A DNA stretch of 12,122 nucleotides, from positions 1-12,122 of the forward strand of contig JAQCIU010000061.1 of NCBI GenBank assembly GCA_027593235.1, written 5' to 3'. Each line of letters begins with the position of its first letter. Position 1 is the stretch's first letter. Under the pieces are notes generated by a model. That model was not told the origin of the DNA. It made no database searches and saw only the letters and a program-made list of their open reading frames with translations. A program made the translations under genes and the position numbers. The stretch is from Chloroflexota bacterium. GTDB taxonomy: Bacteria; Chloroflexota; Dehalococcoidia; UBA2979. Positions 2,171 through 11,719 of this stretch are shown here, piece after piece.

Positions 2171-3058
2171 TCAAAGCTCGACAAGCTCGTCCGGCAACGC
2201 CTCGGCGAGCGTCGGCTGGGCAAACTCCCACCCGCCATCGGTGAGTCGCTGCGGCACCACCCGCTGGCTCACCAGCCCGGTCTCCTCCGCCTTCTCGCCA
2301 CCCATGATCAGCTTCAGCGCGAAGGCGGGCAGCGGGAACAGGGTCGGTCGGCTGATCGCACGGCCGAGGTCTTTCGTGAAGGTGTTGTTAGTCGCCTCTT
2401 CGGGCGCCACTGCGTTCAGCGGGCCTGACACGTCCCCGGTCACCGCGTGCTCGTAGATCCGCACGAGGTCCTCCAGGCCGACCCACGGGAAGTACTGCTT
2501 CCCGCTGCCGAGCTTGCCTCCGAGGCCGAACTTGAACGGGGTGATCAGCGCCGGGAGCATGCTCCGCGGCACGATGCCGCTGCGCACCATCGCCACCCGC
2601 AGTCCGAGTTGCTCGGCCGGCTGCGCCGCGGCCTCCCAATCGACCACGAGGTCGGCGAGGAACCCGCTGCCGCGAGCCGCCTCCTCGGTCAGTCGCTCGT
2701 CGCCGCGGTCGCCGTAGAACCCGACGGCCGAAGACGTCACGAACGCCTGTGGTCGGTCGCTCATCCCTCGGATCGTGTCCACCAGCAGGGTCGCGCCGTC
2801 GATCCGACTGCTGCGCATCTCCTTCTTGTAGGAGTCGCTCCAGCGCCCGTCGCCGATCGACGCGCCGGCGAGGTGCAGCACCACGTCGACGCCATCGAGG
2901 ATGCCCTCGCGCACCCAGCGGTCCGCCGGGCTCCATTCCGCGTTGGGGTTCGAGGCGTCGCCGTGCCTGAGCCGGATGACGTCGTGGCCAGCCGCCTCGA
3001 GCCTGGGCCGCAGCGCAGAGCCGACCATTCCAGAGCTGCCCGTGATCGCGATTCGCAT
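2171..3058 (-). CDS. TIGR01777-family NAD(P)-dependent epimerase/oxidoreductase (YfcH-like)
   Basis: MRIAITGSSGMVG Rossmann start; HLAGASI..RW, SAVGFYG, GFLA...DWE and FKFGLGGKLGSGKQYFPW motifs. ATG overlaps the upstream stop (TGATG) and has a GGAGG RBS. Confidence 0.9.
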   Translation of the reverse strand: MRIAITGSSGMVGSALRPRLEAAGHDVIRLRHGDASNPNAEWSPADRWVREGILDGVDVVLHLAGASIGDGRWSDSYKKEMRSSRIDGATLLVDTIRGMSDRPQAFVTSSAVGFYGDRGDERLTEEAARGSGFLADLVVDWEAAAQPAEQLGLRVAMVRSGIVPRSMLPALITPFKFGLGGKLGSGKQYFPWVGLEDLVRIYEHAVTGDVSGPLNAVAPEEATNNTFTKDLGRAISRPTLFPLPAFALKLIMGGEKAEETGLVSQRVVPQRLTDGGWEFAQPTLAEALPDELVEL

Positions 3059-4020
3059 CAGTCCACCTCCCGGTGGCCTCGATGGAGCGGGATGGGAGCG
3101 CTGCCTGTCAGCTTTCTCTCTCCGCCGCTTCCAGTCAACGTTTCGATCATGACGTTCGCGGCGTCGCCGATGGCGGCGGGTAACCGCACGCCAGGGATGT
3201 CCGAGGAGTCCCCCGCCGCGTCCAGGGCGGGCCCCCCGACGAAGATGCGCGCGCGCACCTTCCCCGCGACCAGCGCCCGTGCGGTCAGTCCCATCACCGG
3301 AAGCGTGGTCGGCGCGGTCGCCGAGAGCGACACTGCGTCGGCATTCGTGCGGCGCAGCGCTGACAGCAAGTCGACACCCGGCACGTCTGCACCGAGGAAG
3401 ATCACCCGCAGGCCGGCTTCGCGCAGGAGCAGCCACAGCGCGCTCACCCCCAGGTCGTGACGCTCATCCTCGGGACAGGCCAGCACGACCGTCGGCGCAT
3501 CGGCTGGCGACATTGGGAGCACGGCTACCGTCGCGAGCAGCTCACGGCGCACGATCGATGACGCGAAGTGCTCCGAGCTCAGCGCCAGCTCGCCACGTTC
3601 CCAACGCTCGCCGATCACCCGCAGCGAGGGGAAGAGGACCTCGGCAAGAGCGCCCCGCCAACCAAGCGACTCCACGGCCTCTTCGATTGCCGCCTGCAGC
3701 TCGGGCTCGTCGTAGCGTTCCGCCGCATCCACGATCGCGAAGGCGAGTGAGTGCACCTCGGCCGGTGGCGCCGCCGGGAGCTCGACGACCGTGCCGCGTT
3801 CGGCCTCGGAGAAGGCCGCCTCGGCCGCCTGGGCTGCCGGCACTCCCGCATCGACCAGCGCGGCCATGCGCCGGATAACGGCGAGGTCGTCCTCCTCGTA
3901 GAGCCGGCGCCCGGTATCCGAGCGGTCAGGGTGGGGGACCCCGTAGCGGCGTTCCCACGTTCGTAGTCGTGCCGAGCTCACGCCAGTGGCCTTCGAAGCG
4001 GCCTGAACTGTGTACTTCAT
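3058..4020 (-). CDS. carH: MerR-family adenosylcobalamin-dependent photoreceptor/repressor (CarH/LitR type)
   Basis: MerR HTH (TGVSSARLRTWERRYG..P.R...GRRLY), W-x9-EH motif (WERGELALSSEH), B12-binding ExHxxG (ERHDLG) with later SxT and GG. Start placed at ATG 4020, apparently leaderless. Confidence 0.88.
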   Translation of the reverse strand: MKYTVQAASKATGVSSARLRTWERRYGVPHPDRSDTGRRLYEEDDLAVIRRMAALVDAGVPAAQAAEAAFSEAERGTVVELPAAPPAEVHSLAFAIVDAAERYDEPELQAAIEEAVESLGWRGALAEVLFPSLRVIGERWERGELALSSEHFASSIVRRELLATVAVLPMSPADAPTVVLACPEDERHDLGVSALWLLLREAGLRVIFLGADVPGVDLLSALRRTNADAVSLSATAPTTLPVMGLTARALVAGKVRARIFVGGPALDAAGDSSDIPGVRLPAAIGDAANVMIETLTGSGGERKLTGSAPIPLHRGHREVD

Positions 4021-4026
4021 GACGAG

Positions 4027-4055
4027 AGGATAGAAGTTTTGCAGTTCTTTTGCAA
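4027..4055 (-). promoter_or_regulatory. sigma70-type promoter for leaderless carH
   Basis: Minus strand reads TTGCAA (4055-4050)-N17-TATCCT (4032-4027)-N6-ATG. No Shine-Dalgarno sequence. Confidence 0.6.
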
Positions 4056-4068
4056 TATGGACTTGCAT
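4037..4068. promoter_or_regulatory. candidate CarH operator (TTTTGCA at 11-bp spacing, third TTGCA 13 bp further)
   Basis: TTTTGCA at 4037 and 4048, TTGCA at 4063, overlapping both -35 boxes. CarH proteins are known to bind 11-bp direct repeats overlapping -35. Confidence 0.5.
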
Positions 4069-4091
4069 CATCTTCAATTCTGCGCCACTAT
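4063..4091 (+). promoter_or_regulatory. divergent promoter for the fasciclin gene
   Basis: TTGCAT (4063-4068)-N17-CACTAT (4086-4091), back to back with the carH promoter. Confidence 0.45.
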
Positions 4092-5441: not shown

Positions 5442-5694
5442 ACCAAACGAAAGCCCACGCGCTTCGCGGCCCGCGACTCGACGAATGCGAGCAGCACCCT
5501 GACTATCTGGATATCGTGACGATGGAAACCGATTCGAGACGACCTCCGCGCTGCTGGATAGCGATCACTCCGGGTGAGCCGAACCGCCGTACGGCCAAGC
5601 TGGCAGGCCAGCGCGGCGCTGATGCCGCTACTTGCTCGGATCAGCCGGACACACTGCCCCGGCAGTTCCATGCATTCGCCCAGGTGGTTTCGAG

Positions 5695-6954
5695 ATGAAG
5701 ATCGCCGTGATCGGCGCAGGCGTCAGCGGACTGACGGCCGCCTATCTCTTGGACCGTGAACACGACGTTGAGTTGTTCGAGCGCAACACCTACGCGGGCG
5801 GACACGCGAACACGGTGATCGTACCGGGCCTCGATGGCGCGGACGTCCCACTCGATGTCGGCTTCATCGTCTACAACGAGCGGACATATCCCGGGCTGAC
5901 CCGCCTGCTCGCCGAGCTCGATGTCGCCACTCGGCAGAGCGAGATGTCGTTCAGCGTCGCCTGCGAGGAAGACGACTTCGAGTTCAGCAGCCGCGGCATC
6001 CGCGGCTACCTGGCGCAGCCCCGCAACGCGCTGAGGCCATCGCACCTGCGGATGGTCCTCGACCTGTTGCGCTTCCATCGCGACGCGAAGCGCGTGCTAG
6101 CGGAAGACACGATGCACGACGTCAGTTTCGAGGCGTACCTCGACCAACGAGGGTTTGGAGACGCCTTCCGTGAACGGCTGATCGTGCCGTTGATCGCCTC
6201 AACCTGGTCTAACTCGCCGGAGAACATCATCAAGTTCCCGGCGAACTACCTGCTCCGCTTCCTCCGCCAGCACGGCGTGCTCGACCGGAACGCGATCCCG
6301 GAGTGGCGCTGGATCGAGGGCGGCTCGCGCAGCTATGTGAACCGCATCCTCGAGTCGCTGCCCGAGGGGTCCGTCCACCTGGACAGCGAGATCCGCGGGA
6401 TCTCGAGGGCCGGTGGACCCTGCATCGCGTTCGCGAACGGAGAACGGCGTCCGTTCGATGCACTGGTGATCGCCACGCACCCGGACCAGGCGCTCCGCCT
6501 GCTGTCAGATCCCACCGCCGAGGAGCGCGCCGCGCTTGAGGGCTTCACCTACGCGCCGAATCACGTCGTGCTGCACACCGATGACCGGCTGCTGCCGAAG
6601 CGCGAGGCGGCACGCGCCGCCTGGAACTATCAGCGCCACGAGTGCTCAGGCTTCCCGAAGACGCTCACGATGACCTATGACCTGGCACGCCTGCAGCGCC
6701 TGCCCGGCGAGCATCCCTACTGCGTCTCGGTGAACCCTGGCGACCGCGTCGATCCGTCGAAGGTGCTGGCCAAATTCGACTACATGCACCCCGTCTACTC
6801 GATGGACACGCTCGAGGCGCAGCATCGCCTCGAGGCGATCAACGGTAAGCGCGACACCCACTTCGCCGGCGCCTACCTCGGCTACGGTTTCCACGAGGAC
6901 GGCCTGCAGGCTGGCGTGCGCGCCGCGAAGAGATTGAGTGCCTCGACCACCTGA
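5695..6954 (+). CDS. FAD-dependent oxidoreductase (amine oxidase-like; Rv0449c / UfaD-type NAD/FAD-binding family)
   Basis: MKIAVIGAGVSGL dinucleotide motif, GGHANT, DVGFIVYNERTYP, EMSFSV, W..I.GGSRSYV and GAYLGYGFHEDG. AGGTGG RBS before ATG 5695. The last ~6 codons derive from the IS fragment. Confidence 0.88.
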   Translation: MKIAVIGAGVSGLTAAYLLDREHDVELFERNTYAGGHANTVIVPGLDGADVPLDVGFIVYNERTYPGLTRLLAELDVATRQSEMSFSVACEEDDFEFSSRGIRGYLAQPRNALRPSHLRMVLDLLRFHRDAKRVLAEDTMHDVSFEAYLDQRGFGDAFRERLIVPLIASTWSNSPENIIKFPANYLLRFLRQHGVLDRNAIPEWRWIEGGSRSYVNRILESLPEGSVHLDSEIRGISRAGGPCIAFANGERRPFDALVIATHPDQALRLLSDPTAEERAALEGFTYAPNHVVLHTDDRLLPKREAARAAWNYQRHECSGFPKTLTMTYDLARLQRLPGEHPYCVSVNPGDRVDPSKVLAKFDYMHPVYSMDTLEAQHRLEAINGKRDTHFAGAYLGYGFHEDGLQAGVRAAKRLSASTT

Positions 6955-7151
6955 TCGTGCTCAACGAGTCGCAGCTCCGCCGGGTGCTGAGTGAGTACGT
7001 CACCCACTACAACAACGCGCGTCCGCATCGATCATTGGCGCTTGAGCCGCCGGCTGGTCCTCGAGCGCTAACGCCATTCCCGCAGCGGTCTCGCGTCTTT
7101 GGGGCACCGGTCCTCGGCGGCCTCCACCACGATTACGACTGGGCGGCCTGA
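6936..7151 (+). pseudogene. C-terminal remnant of an rve integrase-core (IS481/IS3-like DDE) transposase
   Basis: From 6936 reads ECLDHLIVLNESQLRRVLSEYVTHYNNARPHRSL...PVLGGLHHDYDWAA*, the characteristic end of integrase-core-domain transposases. The N-terminal part is absent. Confidence 0.85.
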
Positions 7152-7153
7152 CC

Positions 7154-7174
7154 GCGGATGGGGTTTTCGCGCCC
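7154..7174 (+). repeat. right terminal inverted repeat of the IS481-like remnant, split by IS110 (last 4 nt CACA at 8647-8650)
   Basis: Removing the IS110 restores GCGGATGGGGTTTTCGCGCCCCACA directly after the transposase stop, ending in ACA as in TGT...ACA-ended elements. The partner left IR is not seen. Confidence 0.65.
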
Positions 7175-7186
7175 TATACGTCGAAG

Positions 7187-7378
7187 CCGGTGGCACTCGG
7201 GTCCGGGTAGCCGGATAGAGTGACGCTGGCCGGCCCCCGCTGGGAGCGCCTTTTCGTGCCTGCCGACCGAACGGCCTCTGTGGGAGATGCGCCCCAGCGG
7301 GGTAGCCGCGGTACGAACGTCCACAAAGATGTCGCGCCGCGAGCGCCAGTATAGGGCTGACGATGTAGCGCGGCCGCC
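7187..7378 (+). ncRNA. IS110 bridge RNA (5' hairpin, target-binding loop, donor-binding loop); ends approximate
   Basis: 5' hairpin 7202-7215. Target loop closed by stem 7235-7249/7289-7302 with inner hairpin 7262-7275, carrying TTTTCGTGCC and CTGTGGG. Donor loop closed by stem 7305-7321/7359-7374 with inner hairpin 7334-7346, carrying CAAAGATGTC and GTATAGG. All four segments match the element junctions. Confidence 0.85.
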
Positions 7379-7412
7379 GGTCGAACCGTTCTCCCCGTGA
7401 GGAAAGGTCGAC

Positions 7413-8627
7413 ATGGACTCGTACCAGCACATGGTTGGCATCGATTGGGGTTCGCAGACGCACCAGGTCTGCCTCGTCTCGCCGCGACGCGCACCCGAGC
7501 AGCGTCAGTTCGCGCATCGTGCGGAGGGCCTCGCTGCACTCGTGGCCTGGTTGACCGAGTCGTGCGGTGACGTCGCGACCGTCGCCGTCGGGATCGAGGT
7601 ACCACACGGCGCGGTGGTCGAGACGCTGCTGGAGCACGGCTTCGCCGTCTACGCCATCAACCCGAAGCAGCTCGATCGCTTTCGTGACCGACACAGCGTG
7701 GCCGGTGCCAAGGACGACCGGCTCGACGCCTTCGTGCTGGCGGACGCGCTACGCACCGACCAGGAGAAGTTCAGACGACTCTCCGTCCCAGACGAGACGA
7801 CGCTGGCGCTGCGTGAGGTCTCGCGCTGCCACGACACGCTGAAGGCGGACCTCAACCGCCTCGCCAATCTCCTGCGCGAGCAGCTGCAGCGCTACTTCCC
7901 GCAGCTTCTCGAGCTGTGTCCGGCCGCCAACGAGCCCTGGCTCTGGGAGCTGCTCGAGGTCGCCGCCGATCCTGCACAGGCGGCGCGGCTGCCGAAACGG
8001 CGAGTGAGTGCCCTGCTCGCGCGACACCGCAAGCGCGCGGTGACCGCAGACGCCGTCCTGGCCGTGCTGCGACGCGAACCGCTGACACTCGCCCCCGGTT
8101 CGCTGGAAGCCGTGCTCTTTCACGTGTCGTCGCTACTGCCGCAGCTGCAGGCCACCCATGTCGAGCATCAACGCTGCCGACGCCGACTGGCGGAGCTGTG
8201 CCGGCAAGCGGGACGCACCGCCGAGATCGTGGACTCGCACCGCGGCGCAGACGTGATCGTCACGGCGAAGCTGCTCGCCGAGGCACCCCAGGCGCTCGCT
8301 GAGCTGGACCTACAGATGCTCCGCATCTTGGCCGGGACCGCGCCCGTCACCAGACAGAGCGGGAAGTCACATCGGGTCGTGATGCGCCGCGCCTGCAACA
8401 CGCGGCTGCGTGATGCAGTCCGGCACTGGGTTCGCTCGAACATGGCCAGCGACCCGTACGGTCGGTCGCTCTACCTGTCGATGCGTGCGCGCGGCCTCCG
8501 TCACGAGCGCGCACTGCGCGGCCTCGCCGACCGGCTGCTTGCCTGTCTCATCGCCACGCTCCGCAACGACGAGCTCTACGACTCGCAGCGACGTGCCCGC
8601 CGTGTCCCGGAAGCGCTCGCCGCTTGA
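7413..8627 (+). CDS. IS110-family transposase (DEDD RuvC-like bridge recombinase)
   Basis: GIDWG (D), GIEVP (E), INPKQL..FR, KDDRLDA (D,D); C-terminal Tnp domain APVTRQSGK with the catalytic Ser and R..CN.RLR. AGGAAAGG RBS. Confidence 0.95.
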   Translation: MDSYQHMVGIDWGSQTHQVCLVSPRRAPEQRQFAHRAEGLAALVAWLTESCGDVATVAVGIEVPHGAVVETLLEHGFAVYAINPKQLDRFRDRHSVAGAKDDRLDAFVLADALRTDQEKFRRLSVPDETTLALREVSRCHDTLKADLNRLANLLREQLQRYFPQLLELCPAANEPWLWELLEVAADPAQAARLPKRRVSALLARHRKRAVTADAVLAVLRREPLTLAPGSLEAVLFHVSSLLPQLQATHVEHQRCRRRLAELCRQAGRTAEIVDSHRGADVIVTAKLLAEAPQALAELDLQMLRILAGTAPVTRQSGKSHRVVMRRACNTRLRDAVRHWVRSNMASDPYGRSLYLSMRARGLRHERALRGLADRLLACLIATLRNDELYDSQRRARRVPEALAA

Positions 8628-8629
8628 CG
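8624..8629 (+). promoter_or_regulatory. -35 box of the IS110 circle-junction promoter (pairs with -10 TATACG at 7175-7180)
   Basis: TTGACG overlaps the transposase stop. Joining the ends through one CC gives TTGACG-AACGACCAAAGATGTCC(17)-TATACG. Confidence 0.75.
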
Positions 8630-8650
8630 AACGACCAAAGATGTCCCACA

Positions 8651-9082
8651 GGCGTTCACTTCCGACCACCCAAGACACGGAACGCACGAAGAACGATCGA
8701 ACTCTCGGCCGCGACGATCGCGCTACTGCGGAGCCATCGGCGAGCACAGCGGGAAGCTCGGTTGAGGCTTGGGCCGTCGTGGAGCGACGGTGGGCTGGTC
8801 TTCCCGTCGCTGGTCGGAACGCCGTGGCTCCCGCGCAACTTCTACCGCGGCTACAAGACGCTGGTGCTCCGGTCCGAGATCGCCAAGCCGGACGGAGTCG
8901 TGTGGCACACCCTGCGGCACACCGCTACGACCCACTGGATCAAAGCTGGAGCTGAACTCCATGTGGTGAGTCGCAGACTCGGCCATGCCTCTGCAGCGTT
9001 CACGATGGATACGTACGGGCACTTGTTGCCCGGCATGCAGCGCCAGGCGGCCGAGGCGTTCGATCATCTGATCGCGACGTAA
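8651..9082 (+). pseudogene. C-terminal fragment of the island's tyrosine integrase
   Basis: GVHFRPPKT...WHTLRHT...VSRRLGHASAAFTMDTYGH retains K, HxxR, H and Y. It lacks the first catalytic Arg and the arm/core-binding domains, and starts immediately after the IS-end ACA. Confidence 0.9.
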
Positions 9083-9432: not shown

Positions 9433-9508
9433 TGGTAGCAGGGGGCGGATTCGAACCGCCGACCAAGGGCTTATGAATCCCCTGCTCTGGCCTCTGAGCT
9501 ACCCTGCC
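9433..9508 (-). tRNA. tRNA with CAU anticodon, most likely elongator tRNA-Met (Ile2 not excluded)
   Basis: 76 nt: GGCAGGG TA GCTC AGAGGCCA GAGC A GGGGA TTCATAA GCCCT TGGTC GGCGG TTCGAAT CCGCC CCCTGCT A CCA. Full cloverleaf with encoded CCA. The paired G1-U72 argues against an initiator tRNA. Confidence 0.95.
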
Positions 9509-9531: not shown

Positions 9532-10704
9532 CTAGCCTCCGGCCCCGGTCTCCACAACCCTCAAGGGGTTACGGGCGGGGTTACGCGGGCGAGTCGAGCG
9601 CGCACGAGCGGTCGCCATCTTATCGGCCGCTTCCCGCTTGATCGACTCCGCGAGGTGCCCGTACGTGTTTTTGGTCAGGTGAAAGTCCGCGTGCCCCACA
9701 ACGTCCTGGATGGTCGTCAGTGCCACGCCCTGCTCGAGCATGATGCTCACGGCGGTGTGGCGGAGGTCGTGGAACCGACGACGGGGGAGCCCAAGCCGTG
9801 CCAGTAGCCGCTGGAAGTCCTTGACGAGTGTCGTCGCGTGGATCGGCAGGCCACCCGGACGCGTGAAGACAAGATCGCGTTCGACGTAGTGCCGGCCGAT
9901 CTCGGCGCGCTCCCCATTCTGTCGCGTGCGGTGCCGGTGGAGCGCCTCCACAGCGGGTAGCGGCAGGGCGACGGCTCGACGCCCGGCCGCGGTCTTCGGC
10001 GCGATGAATAGCCACTCGCCGCCGATGCGCTGCAACTGATGCTCGACCTGCAGCCTGGACGCCTCGAGGTCAACGTCCCGCCAACGGAGGCCGAGCAACT
10101 CGCCCGAGCGCATGCCAGTCATCACGGCGAGCGTGTAGAGGGCCTCGAGCGGTTCTCCTTCCAGTGCGTCGAGCAGCCCCCACGCCTGGTCGGCGGTGAG
10201 TGGCTCGACGGTTCGGTCTGGGAGGGGTGCCGGCTCCACAAGAGCGGCCACGTTGCGCGTGACGAGTTCCCAGCGTTGAGCCTGCCCGAGCATGGCTCGC
10301 AGCACGGTCCGGATGTAGTTGACCGAGCGTGGGGCGAGTCCGGTGCTTTGGTCCATCAAGTCGCGCACGTCACGGGGGCTGATATCGCTGAGGCGTTGGT
10401 CGCCAAACGCCGGGAGCAAGTGTCGGCGGACGATCGCTTCCTGGCGCTTGTACGTCCCAGGCGCCCAGATCTTCCGCTTCGCCTGCAACCACTCATCGGC
10501 GAACGCGGCGAAGCGGGCATCGGTCCGGACGCCCGCCTGCAGTTCGCGGACGAGCTGGGCTCGCAGTCGGATCGCGTCGCGCTGGCTGACGGCCCGCCGG
10601 CGTCGCTTCCGCTGCCGACCGGTGGCGTCGATGAACGACACCTGGGCGACCCACCGATCGCCTTCTCGGTAAACCGATCCTTCGCTGTTCGCACGTCGCG
10701 CCAT
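9532..10704 (-). CDS. int: tyrosine recombinase / phage integrase (390 aa)
   Basis: N-terminal RRANSEGSVY...W arm-binding region; TGMRSGELLGLRW (R), PKT (K), FHDLRH, VGH and NTYGH (Y) all present. Confidence 0.95.
   Translation of the reverse strand: MARRANSEGSVYREGDRWVAQVSFIDATGRQRKRRRRAVSQRDAIRLRAQLVRELQAGVRTDARFAAFADEWLQAKRKIWAPGTYKRQEAIVRRHLLPAFGDQRLSDISPRDVRDLMDQSTGLAPRSVNYIRTVLRAMLGQAQRWELVTRNVAALVEPAPLPDRTVEPLTADQAWGLLDALEGEPLEALYTLAVMTGMRSGELLGLRWRDVDLEASRLQVEHQLQRIGGEWLFIAPKTAAGRRAVALPLPAVEALHRHRTRQNGERAEIGRHYVERDLVFTRPGGLPIHATTLVKDFQRLLARLGLPRRRFHDLRHTAVSIMLEQGVALTTIQDVVGHADFHLTKNTYGHLAESIKREAADKMATARARSTRPRNPARNPLRVVETGAGG
9565..9585. repeat. GGGGTTACG direct repeat (12-bp period), candidate arm-type sites within the int 3' end
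   Basis: GGGGTTACG at 9565-9573 and 9577-9585, 57-77 bp from the tRNA 5' end. Confidence 0.5.
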
Positions 10705-10963: not shown

Positions 10964-11506
10964 CTACGCGGCGCCGTATTGGCGCGCGATGGTGCGGTAA
11001 AAGCGGAGGGACTCCCGCTCGACATCGATGCCGTGGGCTGCCTTGATGCGCTCAGTACGGGTGCCGATCCCCGCGCCGCGGGCAACCGGTTCGACTGAAA
11101 TCACGTCGAGCGCCTTGAGGAATCGGACCGGCTGGTTTCGCCCTGCGCCAACTGGCCAAGTGCCGAAACTATGGTCCAGTACGCGGAAGACGTACGACCA
11201 CTCGGCGAGCTTCCCGAGATTCCTCACGGTCCGGAAGGCGGCGTCGCCGTGCGGCGTGTCGAGGAAGAACGAACCCTCGATGCGTACGAGCCTGCCGTCC
11301 TCGCGTAGGACCCCGCTGCCTACCGGCAGCGGGCCGCTCGCGTGGTTCCACGCGCCGACGAGGGCGCCGGCGCCGTTCTCGAAGGCTCCGGGCAGGGTCA
11401 CGTCGCCGTCGTGGTCGACGACGTTCAGCGTGGCGAAGACTGCCGTGAACTGGCCGCCGCTCCCTGCTTTGAGCTCCAGCGATAGCGACTTAGTTTCAAG
11501 GCTCAT
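10964..11506 (-). CDS. HK97-family phage prohead protease (~180 aa)
   Basis: FTAVFATLNVVDHDGDVTLPGAF, WNH (His), P.G, EWSY.F (Ser), ISVEPVARGA...T. ATG 11506 has an AAGGGG RBS. Confidence 0.85.
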   Translation of the reverse strand: MSLETKSLSLELKAGSGGQFTAVFATLNVVDHDGDVTLPGAFENGAGALVGAWNHASGPLPVGSGVLREDGRLVRIEGSFFLDTPHGDAAFRTVRNLGKLAEWSYVFRVLDHSFGTWPVGAGRNQPVRFLKALDVISVEPVARGAGIGTRTERIKAAHGIDVERESLRFYRTIARQYGAA

Positions 11507-11719
11507 GGTTGTACCCCTTCGTCGGGCAATGGCGCCTCGATGTCGAGGTCTCGCAGCAGTCGGTGGGCGCGGGTGTCGTCGAAAGGCCGTGTTGATCAGC
11601 TCCTCAGTGATGATTCGAGAGAGGGGGCCAACGTTGATTTGCAGGTCGGGCCGGCTTAGGGTGCCCGACGTGCCTGCCTCAATCGGGCCGAGGTCAAAGA
11701 CGATTTGCCCGGCGGCCAT
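11503..11719 (-). other. small 71-aa hypothetical ORF requiring a +1 shift at 11584-11579; unshifted it runs in frame into the protease
   Basis: ATG 11719 overlaps the terS stop (TAATG). After a +1 shift at GCC TTT CGA the frame reads FDDTRAHRLLRDLDIEAPLPDEGVQP* with its TGA overlapping the protease ATG (ATGA). Confidence 0.5.

Follow-up and report, generated by a model that had tools for sequence, protein, structure and literature searches.

A gene for an IS110-type recombinase that is preceded by a long non-coding stretch raises the question of whether this stretch encodes a bridge RNA, and whether the DNA sites that such an RNA would read are found at the junctions of the element itself. 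The gene lies in a window of 12,122 nucleotides (the whole stretch of DNA that was analysed) from a Chloroflexota bacterium. A preliminary description had proposed an IS110-group element with IS621-type target and donor loops in its left-end RNA, four decodable guides and a CC core, and the present analysis supports this proposal. Positions 7175-8644 very probably represent a structurally intact insertion sequence of the IS110 group with an IS621-like mode of working. The element is 1.47 kb in size, has a CC core on both sides, and consists of a 238-nt left end (LE), a recombinase of 404 aa and a 17-nt right end (RE) (Table 1). Its layout is that of the IS110 group: a long non-coding LE, a short RE, no terminal inverted repeats and the same dinucleotide at both junctions. 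A long left end combined with a short right end is the arrangement given for this group in the available text of Durrant et al. (PMC11208160). The IS1111 group, defined by a short LE, a long RE carrying the RNA and long subterminal inverted repeats, does not fit, since the RE is only 17 nt long and the RNA lies in the LE.

Table 1. Positions of the element, its predicted RNA and neighbouring features in the window.
Feature	Position	Strand	Remarks
Remnant of rve_3-type (DDE) IS	6930-7172	+	Last ~70 transposase codons (stop 7149-7151) and terminal inverted repeat
Core dinucleotide CC, left copy	7173-7174	+	Identical CC at 8645-8646; metagenome contig passes 7174 directly into CACAC
Left end (LE), non-coding, 238 nt	7175-7412	+	Encodes the bridge RNA; first bases TATAC are the right donor (RD)
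-10-like hexamer TATACG	7175-7180	+	Lacks T at position 6
5' stem-loop of predicted RNA	7186-7230	+	Predicted in MFE and centroid fold
Target-binding loop (TBL) module	7235-7302	+	Outer stem 7235-7248/7290-7302; inner hairpin 7262-7275
Parts of target-binding loop	LTG 7251-7260; RTG 7278-7284; handshake positions 7285-7286	+	Handshake positions AG
Donor-binding loop (DBL) module	7306-7373	+	Outer stem 7306-7321/7359-7373; inner hairpin 7334-7346
Parts of donor-binding loop	LDG 7324-7333; RDG 7349-7355; handshake positions 7356-7357	+	Handshake positions GC
Recombinase gene, 404 aa, intact	7413-8627	+	Pfam matches; RBS-like GAGGAAAGG at 7400-7408
Outward-facing -35-like TTGACG	8624-8629	+	Overlaps recombinase stop codon
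Right end (RE), 17 nt	8628-8644	+	Left donor (LD) formed by final 9 nt (8636-8644), CAAAGATGT
Core dinucleotide CC, right copy	8645-8646	+	Read directly
Right target (RT), CACAG plus G	8647-8652	+	Tip of the inverted repeat of the invaded IS
C-terminal fragment of second integrase	8652-9082	+	Ends against the IS remnant
tRNA-Met gene	9433-9508	-	

Evidence for the boundaries was sought separately, because the boundaries in the preliminary description had been chosen to maximise the matches. An empty site exists on a metagenome contig (run X6), which follows the left flank to 7174 and then continues with CACACCCGCG, reading TTTTCGCGCC-CCACAC. This contig has one single CC...CACA run, with CACAC at the place where the window has CACAG. 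A diverged copy is found on a second contig of the same run, and its left flank ceases to follow the window before 7166. On the other side, contigs from runs X3 and X4 leave the window sequence after 8652 for other DNA, and CACAGG is common to four right contexts that diverge beyond it (the window, contig C49 of the same genome, X3 and X4). Taken together, the empty-site contig and the independent flanks diverging at 7166 and after 8652 assign CC plus CACA to target DNA, not to element DNA. At the start of the LE, relatives have TGTAC in the same place as TATAC of the window.

Reading of window positions 7000-8800 recovered, each in its place, all eight strings on which the preliminary description was built, and confirmed their four matches and the shared register around CC. 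The left target guide (LTG), TTTTCGTGCC, agrees with the left flank TTTTCGCGCC (7164-7173) in 9 of 10 bases, and at the odd position a guide U stands opposite a bottom-strand G. The right target guide (RTG), CTGTGGG, is the reverse complement of CCCACAG (8645-8651). In the donor-binding loop, the left donor guide (LDG), CAAAGATGTC, is identical to 8636-8645, and the right donor guide (RDG), GTATAGG, is the reverse complement of CCTATAC (7173-7179), with complementarity that extends to 9 nt (GCCCTATAC, 7171-7179). Both loops keep one register around the two CC copies (7173-7174 and 8645-8646). When 7180-7412 was subjected to mononucleotide shuffling, the four matches arose in 32, 153, 0 and 29 of 5000 shuffles, and never together. 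Composition-based expectations of the four matches give a product of ~6e-11, a chance estimate that has to be read with the caveat that the boundaries had been picked to maximise the matches.

The claim that two stem-bounded internal loops are formed stands for both loops by comparative analysis, although the single-sequence MFE fold lacks the canonical donor loop. The single-sequence fold of the LE is more stable than that of shuffles (z -3.6) and reproduces the 5' hairpin and the target-loop scaffold, while it pairs part of the donor loop differently; thus, the donor-loop architecture rests on comparative analysis. When 20 left ends are aligned, the scaffold with its four helices is conserved and the loop segments vary. 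In this alignment 93% of cells are paired, compared with 81% in shuffles and 32-52% when the partner is slid, and 16 of 28 stem pairs have changed on both sides in a compensatory manner (10/13 in helix 1, 2/4 in helix 2 and 4/7 in helix 3; helix 4 is invariant). None of 500 shuffles reached any of five structure measures. RNAalifold paired the 5' part of LDG with RDG in most relatives. This pairing was rejected as structure because it is broken in the window and because these bases are guides themselves, and a hand-drawn donor outer stem was tested in its place. The outer stem forms in all 18 representatives with differing sequences, and the donor inner hairpin, GCGC-loop-GCGC, is invariant. 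The preliminary description had also asked for a covariance model from homologous left ends. The model that was built, R1, matches the window directly upstream of the recombinase gene (103.9 bits, E 5e-20), and it finds the RNA in the same place in 74 of 80 related loci as well as in L004; three of the six loci lacking a match have no upstream DNA to scan. No Rfam family covers the RNA, the tRNA (9436-9508) being the only match in the window among 4227 models at E up to 1.

Kin genomes were of little use for the comparison (a relative at E <= 1e-40 occurs in only 3 of 60, with 48% identity at best), and so relatives were taken from a wider scan of genome contigs, which gave 80 loci with 42-53% protein identity from many phyla. 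Elements with long right ends escaped an initial decoding that relied on an exact 8-mer and a right end no farther than 130 nt away, and the guides were then read from the R1 model alignment, with the ends being located for each element. In this way 51 of 81 rows were decoded, representing 31 distinct target loops; the other 30 consist of five distant minus-strand matches and 25 rows in which the right or left end was not found in the available DNA. With one row per distinct loop and kinship ignored, the left target (LT) matches its own guide at 7.03 of 9 positions on average, compared with 4.63 for the flanks of other elements, and RT matches at 6.48 of 7 compared with 4.63. For each target guide, 0 of 5000 permutations reached the observed sum, and a 17-loop version (MAFFT alignment, L026 left out) gave the same result. 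The covariation between guides and flanks, which the preliminary description had named as a check, is therefore borne out.

Donor sequences, too, vary together with their guides. Most relatives have GTGGGGAGT-CC-TGTAC as donor. The window has CAAAGATGT-CC-TATAC and L004 has GAATGAAGT-CC-GGTAC, and in each of them LDG and RDG are changed to match. Two relatives, L030 and L048, have a CT core, and the core-pairing bases of their RTG and RDG are changed accordingly; their left target contains GGTGCCATT, which resembles an inverted repeat seen elsewhere in the window's own genome (L002). The handshake rule (PMC11208158, in the text available) also holds in this clade: position 1 after the guide in TBL is complementary to LD -1 in 31 of 31 distinct loops, and that of DBL to LT -1 in 30 of 31. 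The corresponding pairs in the window are A7285:T8644 and G7356:C7172. These positions are near-invariant, and their covariation is seen in one lineage only (L068).

Not every copy obeys all guides. Among the 51 decoded loci, a good fit to both target halves is seen in 30, a fit to the left half only in 8, to the right half only in 3 and to neither in 1; the 12 loci that fit one half or neither are against a strict four-guide reading. Half-match recombination is the subject of a 2026 preprint, in the part of its text available. In Longimicrobiales, eight loci (L029, L032, L033, L034, L090 and L049-L051) have an identical bridge RNA and matching left flanks, and their RTG fits the right flank at only 4-5 of 7 positions; this suggests that they inserted on a half match or that copies recombined with one another at a later time. 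Many relatives (L036, L039, L046, L068, L030, L048, L057, L015, L017 and others) have long right ends, of 200-1366 nt in place of 11-62 nt. In several of them the extra DNA, perhaps cargo or a second RNA, begins with repeated CATCCCTT(T/C)GT... motifs. Expanded IS110 elements are reportedly the subject of a 2026 preprint.

The protein has the domains expected of a bridge recombinase: a DEDD RuvC-like domain at the N-terminus and, at the C-terminus, a Tnp domain with the catalytic serine. Pfam gave DEDD_Tnp_IS110 (PF01548, E 3.9e-35, profile positions 1-155 of 155) and Transposase_20 (PF02371, E 1.5e-07). The only match among solved structures is the IS621 transposase 8wt6, with E 1.6e-4 over the RuvC part. 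In this alignment D11, E62, D102 and D105 correspond to D11, E60, D102 and D105 of IS621, and S316-G317 corresponds to S241-G242, in a stretch that is not significant alone but lies inside the Pfam match. The roles of these residues in IS621 are described in the available text of PMC11208158.

What the element has invaded can also be read from the window. In nature it targets the terminal inverted repeat of an rve-type IS, the site being the outermost 16 bp of this repeat. LT is the last 9 nt of the rve_3 remnant (7164-7172, TTTTCGCGC). The frame of this remnant translates as ...THYNNARPHRSL...HHDYDWAA*, has a weak rve_3 match up to the profile end (E 0.0089), and is 72% identical in DNA to the end of an intact rve_3 ORF on contig C6 of the same genome. 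The inverted-repeat tip ...GCCCCACAG closes this intact ORF and bounds an 833-bp element on contig C35, and with 1-2 mismatches it occurs at six places in the genome, all unoccupied. The 833-bp element (L114 276-1108) lies between target-type inverted repeats (CTGTGGGGCGCCAAAAC ... GTTTTGGCGCCCCACAG), has one ORF with a weak HTH_32 match only, and contains two unoccupied near-target sites; it is probably a deletion derivative of an rve-type IS.

In its own genome, which is 89.7% complete, the IS110-group element has one full copy and one 5'-truncated copy, and no further full copy was found there. The truncated copy on C49 (L002 1501-2025) has 94% identity and is followed, after the core, by CACAGG and then by different DNA. 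It starts right after a 55-bp palindrome (L002 1444-1498), in which two IS-type inverted repeats stand back to back (TGTGGGGTGCCATTA ... TAATGGCACCCCACA) and which looks like a scar or miniature form of another IS that cut this copy. The only other R1 match in the genome, a weak one (C35, 35 bits), was set aside, as it belongs to a different IS110-family element with 29% protein identity. This second element (L120, C35:138062-141222) has its R1 match at 1501-1661, just upstream of the ORF at 1693-2904. Its recombinase of 403 aa matches PF01548 (E 1.3e-44) and PF02371 (E 1.4e-23), and an MFS transporter gene adjoins.

On one side of the tRNA-Met gene lie an intact phage-type integrase gene (9532-10704, minus strand) and a prohead protease gene (10964-11719, minus strand), which belong to an integrated phage-like element. 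The C-terminal fragment of a second integrase (8652-9082, plus strand) is found on its other side, and the tRNA-Met region is a decayed integration hot spot. Upstream, an amine-oxidase-like ORF (5632-6954, plus strand) overlaps with its 3' end the start of the rve-type IS remnant ORF (6930-7151, plus strand); from this overlap, the end of the amine-oxidase-like gene may have been replaced by the IS insertion. Farther away, an ORF on the minus strand (3058-4077) encodes MerR HTH and B12-binding domains, and we take it to be a light- or B12-responsive type of regulator.

How the element would work can be proposed from these features. No sigma-70-type promoter was found in the integrated state by a promoter scan, and the spacing TTGACG-17 nt-TATACG arises only at the RE-LE junction of the excised circle; among relatives, most of 23 distinct junctions have TTGAC at the corresponding position. 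Excision would join the right and left ends around one CC, placing TTGACG of RE 17 nt upstream of TATACG of LE, and the putative promoter would then drive an RNA of roughly 190 nt from about 7187. This RNA would fold into a 5' hairpin and two internal loops, the first reading the target and the second the circle junction, which serves as donor. As the handshake, the base immediately following each 3' guide (A7285 and G7356) would complement the one that precedes the core in the other DNA, and the DEDD/Ser recombinase would exchange strands at the CC core.

Transcription and present-day activity are inferred. In the one clear metatranscriptome (run X20), two 150-nt contigs fall inside the recombinase ORF (7798-7947 and 8097-8246, with 4 and 1 differences). 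They include no contig over the left end and no joints, starts or ends, and DNA carry-over is a possible source. Circle joints were not seen in the contigs of the public runs examined. Recent movement is indicated by near-identical copies that have different flanks in contigs from several studies.

How many bases are read is a further question, as the preliminary description had claimed 16 bp, longer than in IS621. Across the 31 distinct target loops, guide/flank identity in LT is 77-94% at positions -1 to -6 and 58% at -7, and it falls to 39% and 35% at -8 and -9, where the shuffled background is 25%. In RT, identity is 84-100% at positions 1 to 5 and 13% at position 6. Since matching fades beyond LT -7 and stops after RT5, the target footprint of the clade as a whole is ~7+2+5 = 14 nt, the same figure as is given for IS621 and IS622 in the available texts (PMC11208158; 10.1101/2025.05.14.653916). 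The donor side is different. In the window, six of nine LD positions are changed, including -9 and -8, with matching changes in LDG, and this joint change supports a 9-nt left donor guide. Hence, the claimed extra length holds for the left donor guide, where covariation backs it, but is not fully supported for the target, where matching across the 31 relatives extends over ~14 nt as in IS621. Guide lengths vary among orthologues, according to the available text of Durrant et al. (PMC11208160).

Several other explanations of the locus have to be weighed against this reading. If the boundaries were misplaced, CACAGG (8647-8652) would be part of the element and the right-flank match an internal repeat, as might be thought from its presence before the point of divergence in all four known right contexts. 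This is very improbable, because an unoccupied copy of the left flank runs ...GCGCC-CCACAC without the element, which makes CACA target DNA, and because further rve-type IS copies of this genome also end with the tip ...CCCCACAG. It is harder still to believe in a conventional transposon whose four segments serve as subterminal repeats for protein binding instead of as RNA guides. The donor-matching segments do lie inside the element near its end, where protein sites might be, but external DNA is matched by two of the four, which vary together with it from relative to relative, all are placed in loops between stems that have undergone compensatory changes, and the protein family is one that has been shown to use bridge RNA.

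Two further alternatives leave the IS621-like element as such in place and have a more substantial chance of being right. The target guide may truly read nine LT bases, giving a target of 16-17 bp, 2-3 bp beyond IS621; we lean away from this possibility while regarding it as a serious one. The LTG of the window matches LT at all nine positions, one of them by G:U, covariation at -9 and -8 speaks for a 9-nt guide on the donor side and the two loops should be held in the same way, and RT position 6 (G in 4/4 contexts) could wobble-pair with U7277. However, relatives are near background at LT -8 and -9 and have 13% identity at RT6, and the odds of two extra matches by chance are ~1 in 12. The two extra matches of the window may thus be real or due to chance; one near-identical copy has A at LT -8. 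The other alternative is that the element is a recent fossil with intact anatomy, which does not move in this host and whose RNA is not made. We consider this unlikely, though it would agree with the presence of only one full and one truncated copy, with the target-like sites (1-2 mismatches) that stand empty in the same genome, and with the lack of RNA cover over the left end and of circle joints in the runs examined. Against it stand the full-length ORF with its catalytic residues in place, the four guides that all still match, and the near-identical copies with different flanks in several studies.

If the reading as a working IS621-like element is taken one step further, the element may be a naturally reprogrammed bridge system. 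In this proposal, which we put forward tentatively and with considerable doubt, six of nine left-donor bases and one right-donor base were rewritten together with the loops relative to the clade donor, the donor/RNA pair is orthogonal to those of relatives, 9+2+5(6) bases are read on both DNAs (16-17 bp), and the system is aimed at the tip of an IS inverted repeat. Such an element would be a parasite of a parasite, disarming the IS end in which it lands. Apart from this proposal, the locus is a natural case in which empty site, flanks, both loops and handshake could all be worked out, and in which the bridge-RNA rules hold far from IS621. It also documents that an IS110-group element homes to a terminal repeat of the rve type of IS. 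From the data on the clade it can be seen which target positions are read in nature (~7+2+5), with about a quarter of natural copies (12/51) fitting one half or neither. The recombinase, with its CC core and 9-nt left donor guide, is a candidate orthologue for bridge-recombinase screens.

The mechanism itself is not new. It was first described in 2024, when bridge RNAs were also predicted for thousands of IS110 elements (PMC11208160, in the text available), and the window element is thus a clean further example. As far as the available texts on IS621 of Escherichia coli go (PMC11208160; PMC11208158), the two systems share a DEDD RuvC-like domain and a Tnp domain with a catalytic Ser-Gly, a long left end and a short right end with an outward -35 in the latter, and an RNA with target-binding and donor-binding internal loops. 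Common to both are also a 2-nt core inside the pairings, 5' guides that read the bottom strand and 3' guides that read the top strand, and a handshake complementary to the non-cognate DNA. The differences begin with the protein, whose similarity is weak (E 1.6e-4, RuvC part), and whose 404 aa compare with a 328-residue chain in the PDB entry of IS621. The core is CT in IS621 and CC in the window element, and the left donor guide has 7 nt plus core in the former and 9 nt plus core in the latter. The target of the window element is an IS terminal repeat, and this system is known from sequence alone. IS621 presumably targets REP elements. On such targets, the available text of Durrant et al. (PMC11208160) cites Tobes and Pareja.

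In the available part of the study of IS622/ISCro4 and a screen of 72 orthologues (Perry et al., 10.1101/2025.05.14.653916), sites were rebuilt from element boundaries, as was done here. IS622 is 88% identical to IS621, reads 14 nt and has a CT core, whereas the window element represents a distant lineage. In the IS1111 group the guide RNA lies in the long right end, according to the available text of Durrant et al. (PMC11208160). Certain elements of that group likewise have a specific insertion site in a terminal inverted repeat that belongs to another mobile element. Their target is a Tn3-family transposon, whereas the window element belongs to the IS110 group and has an rve-type IS as its target.
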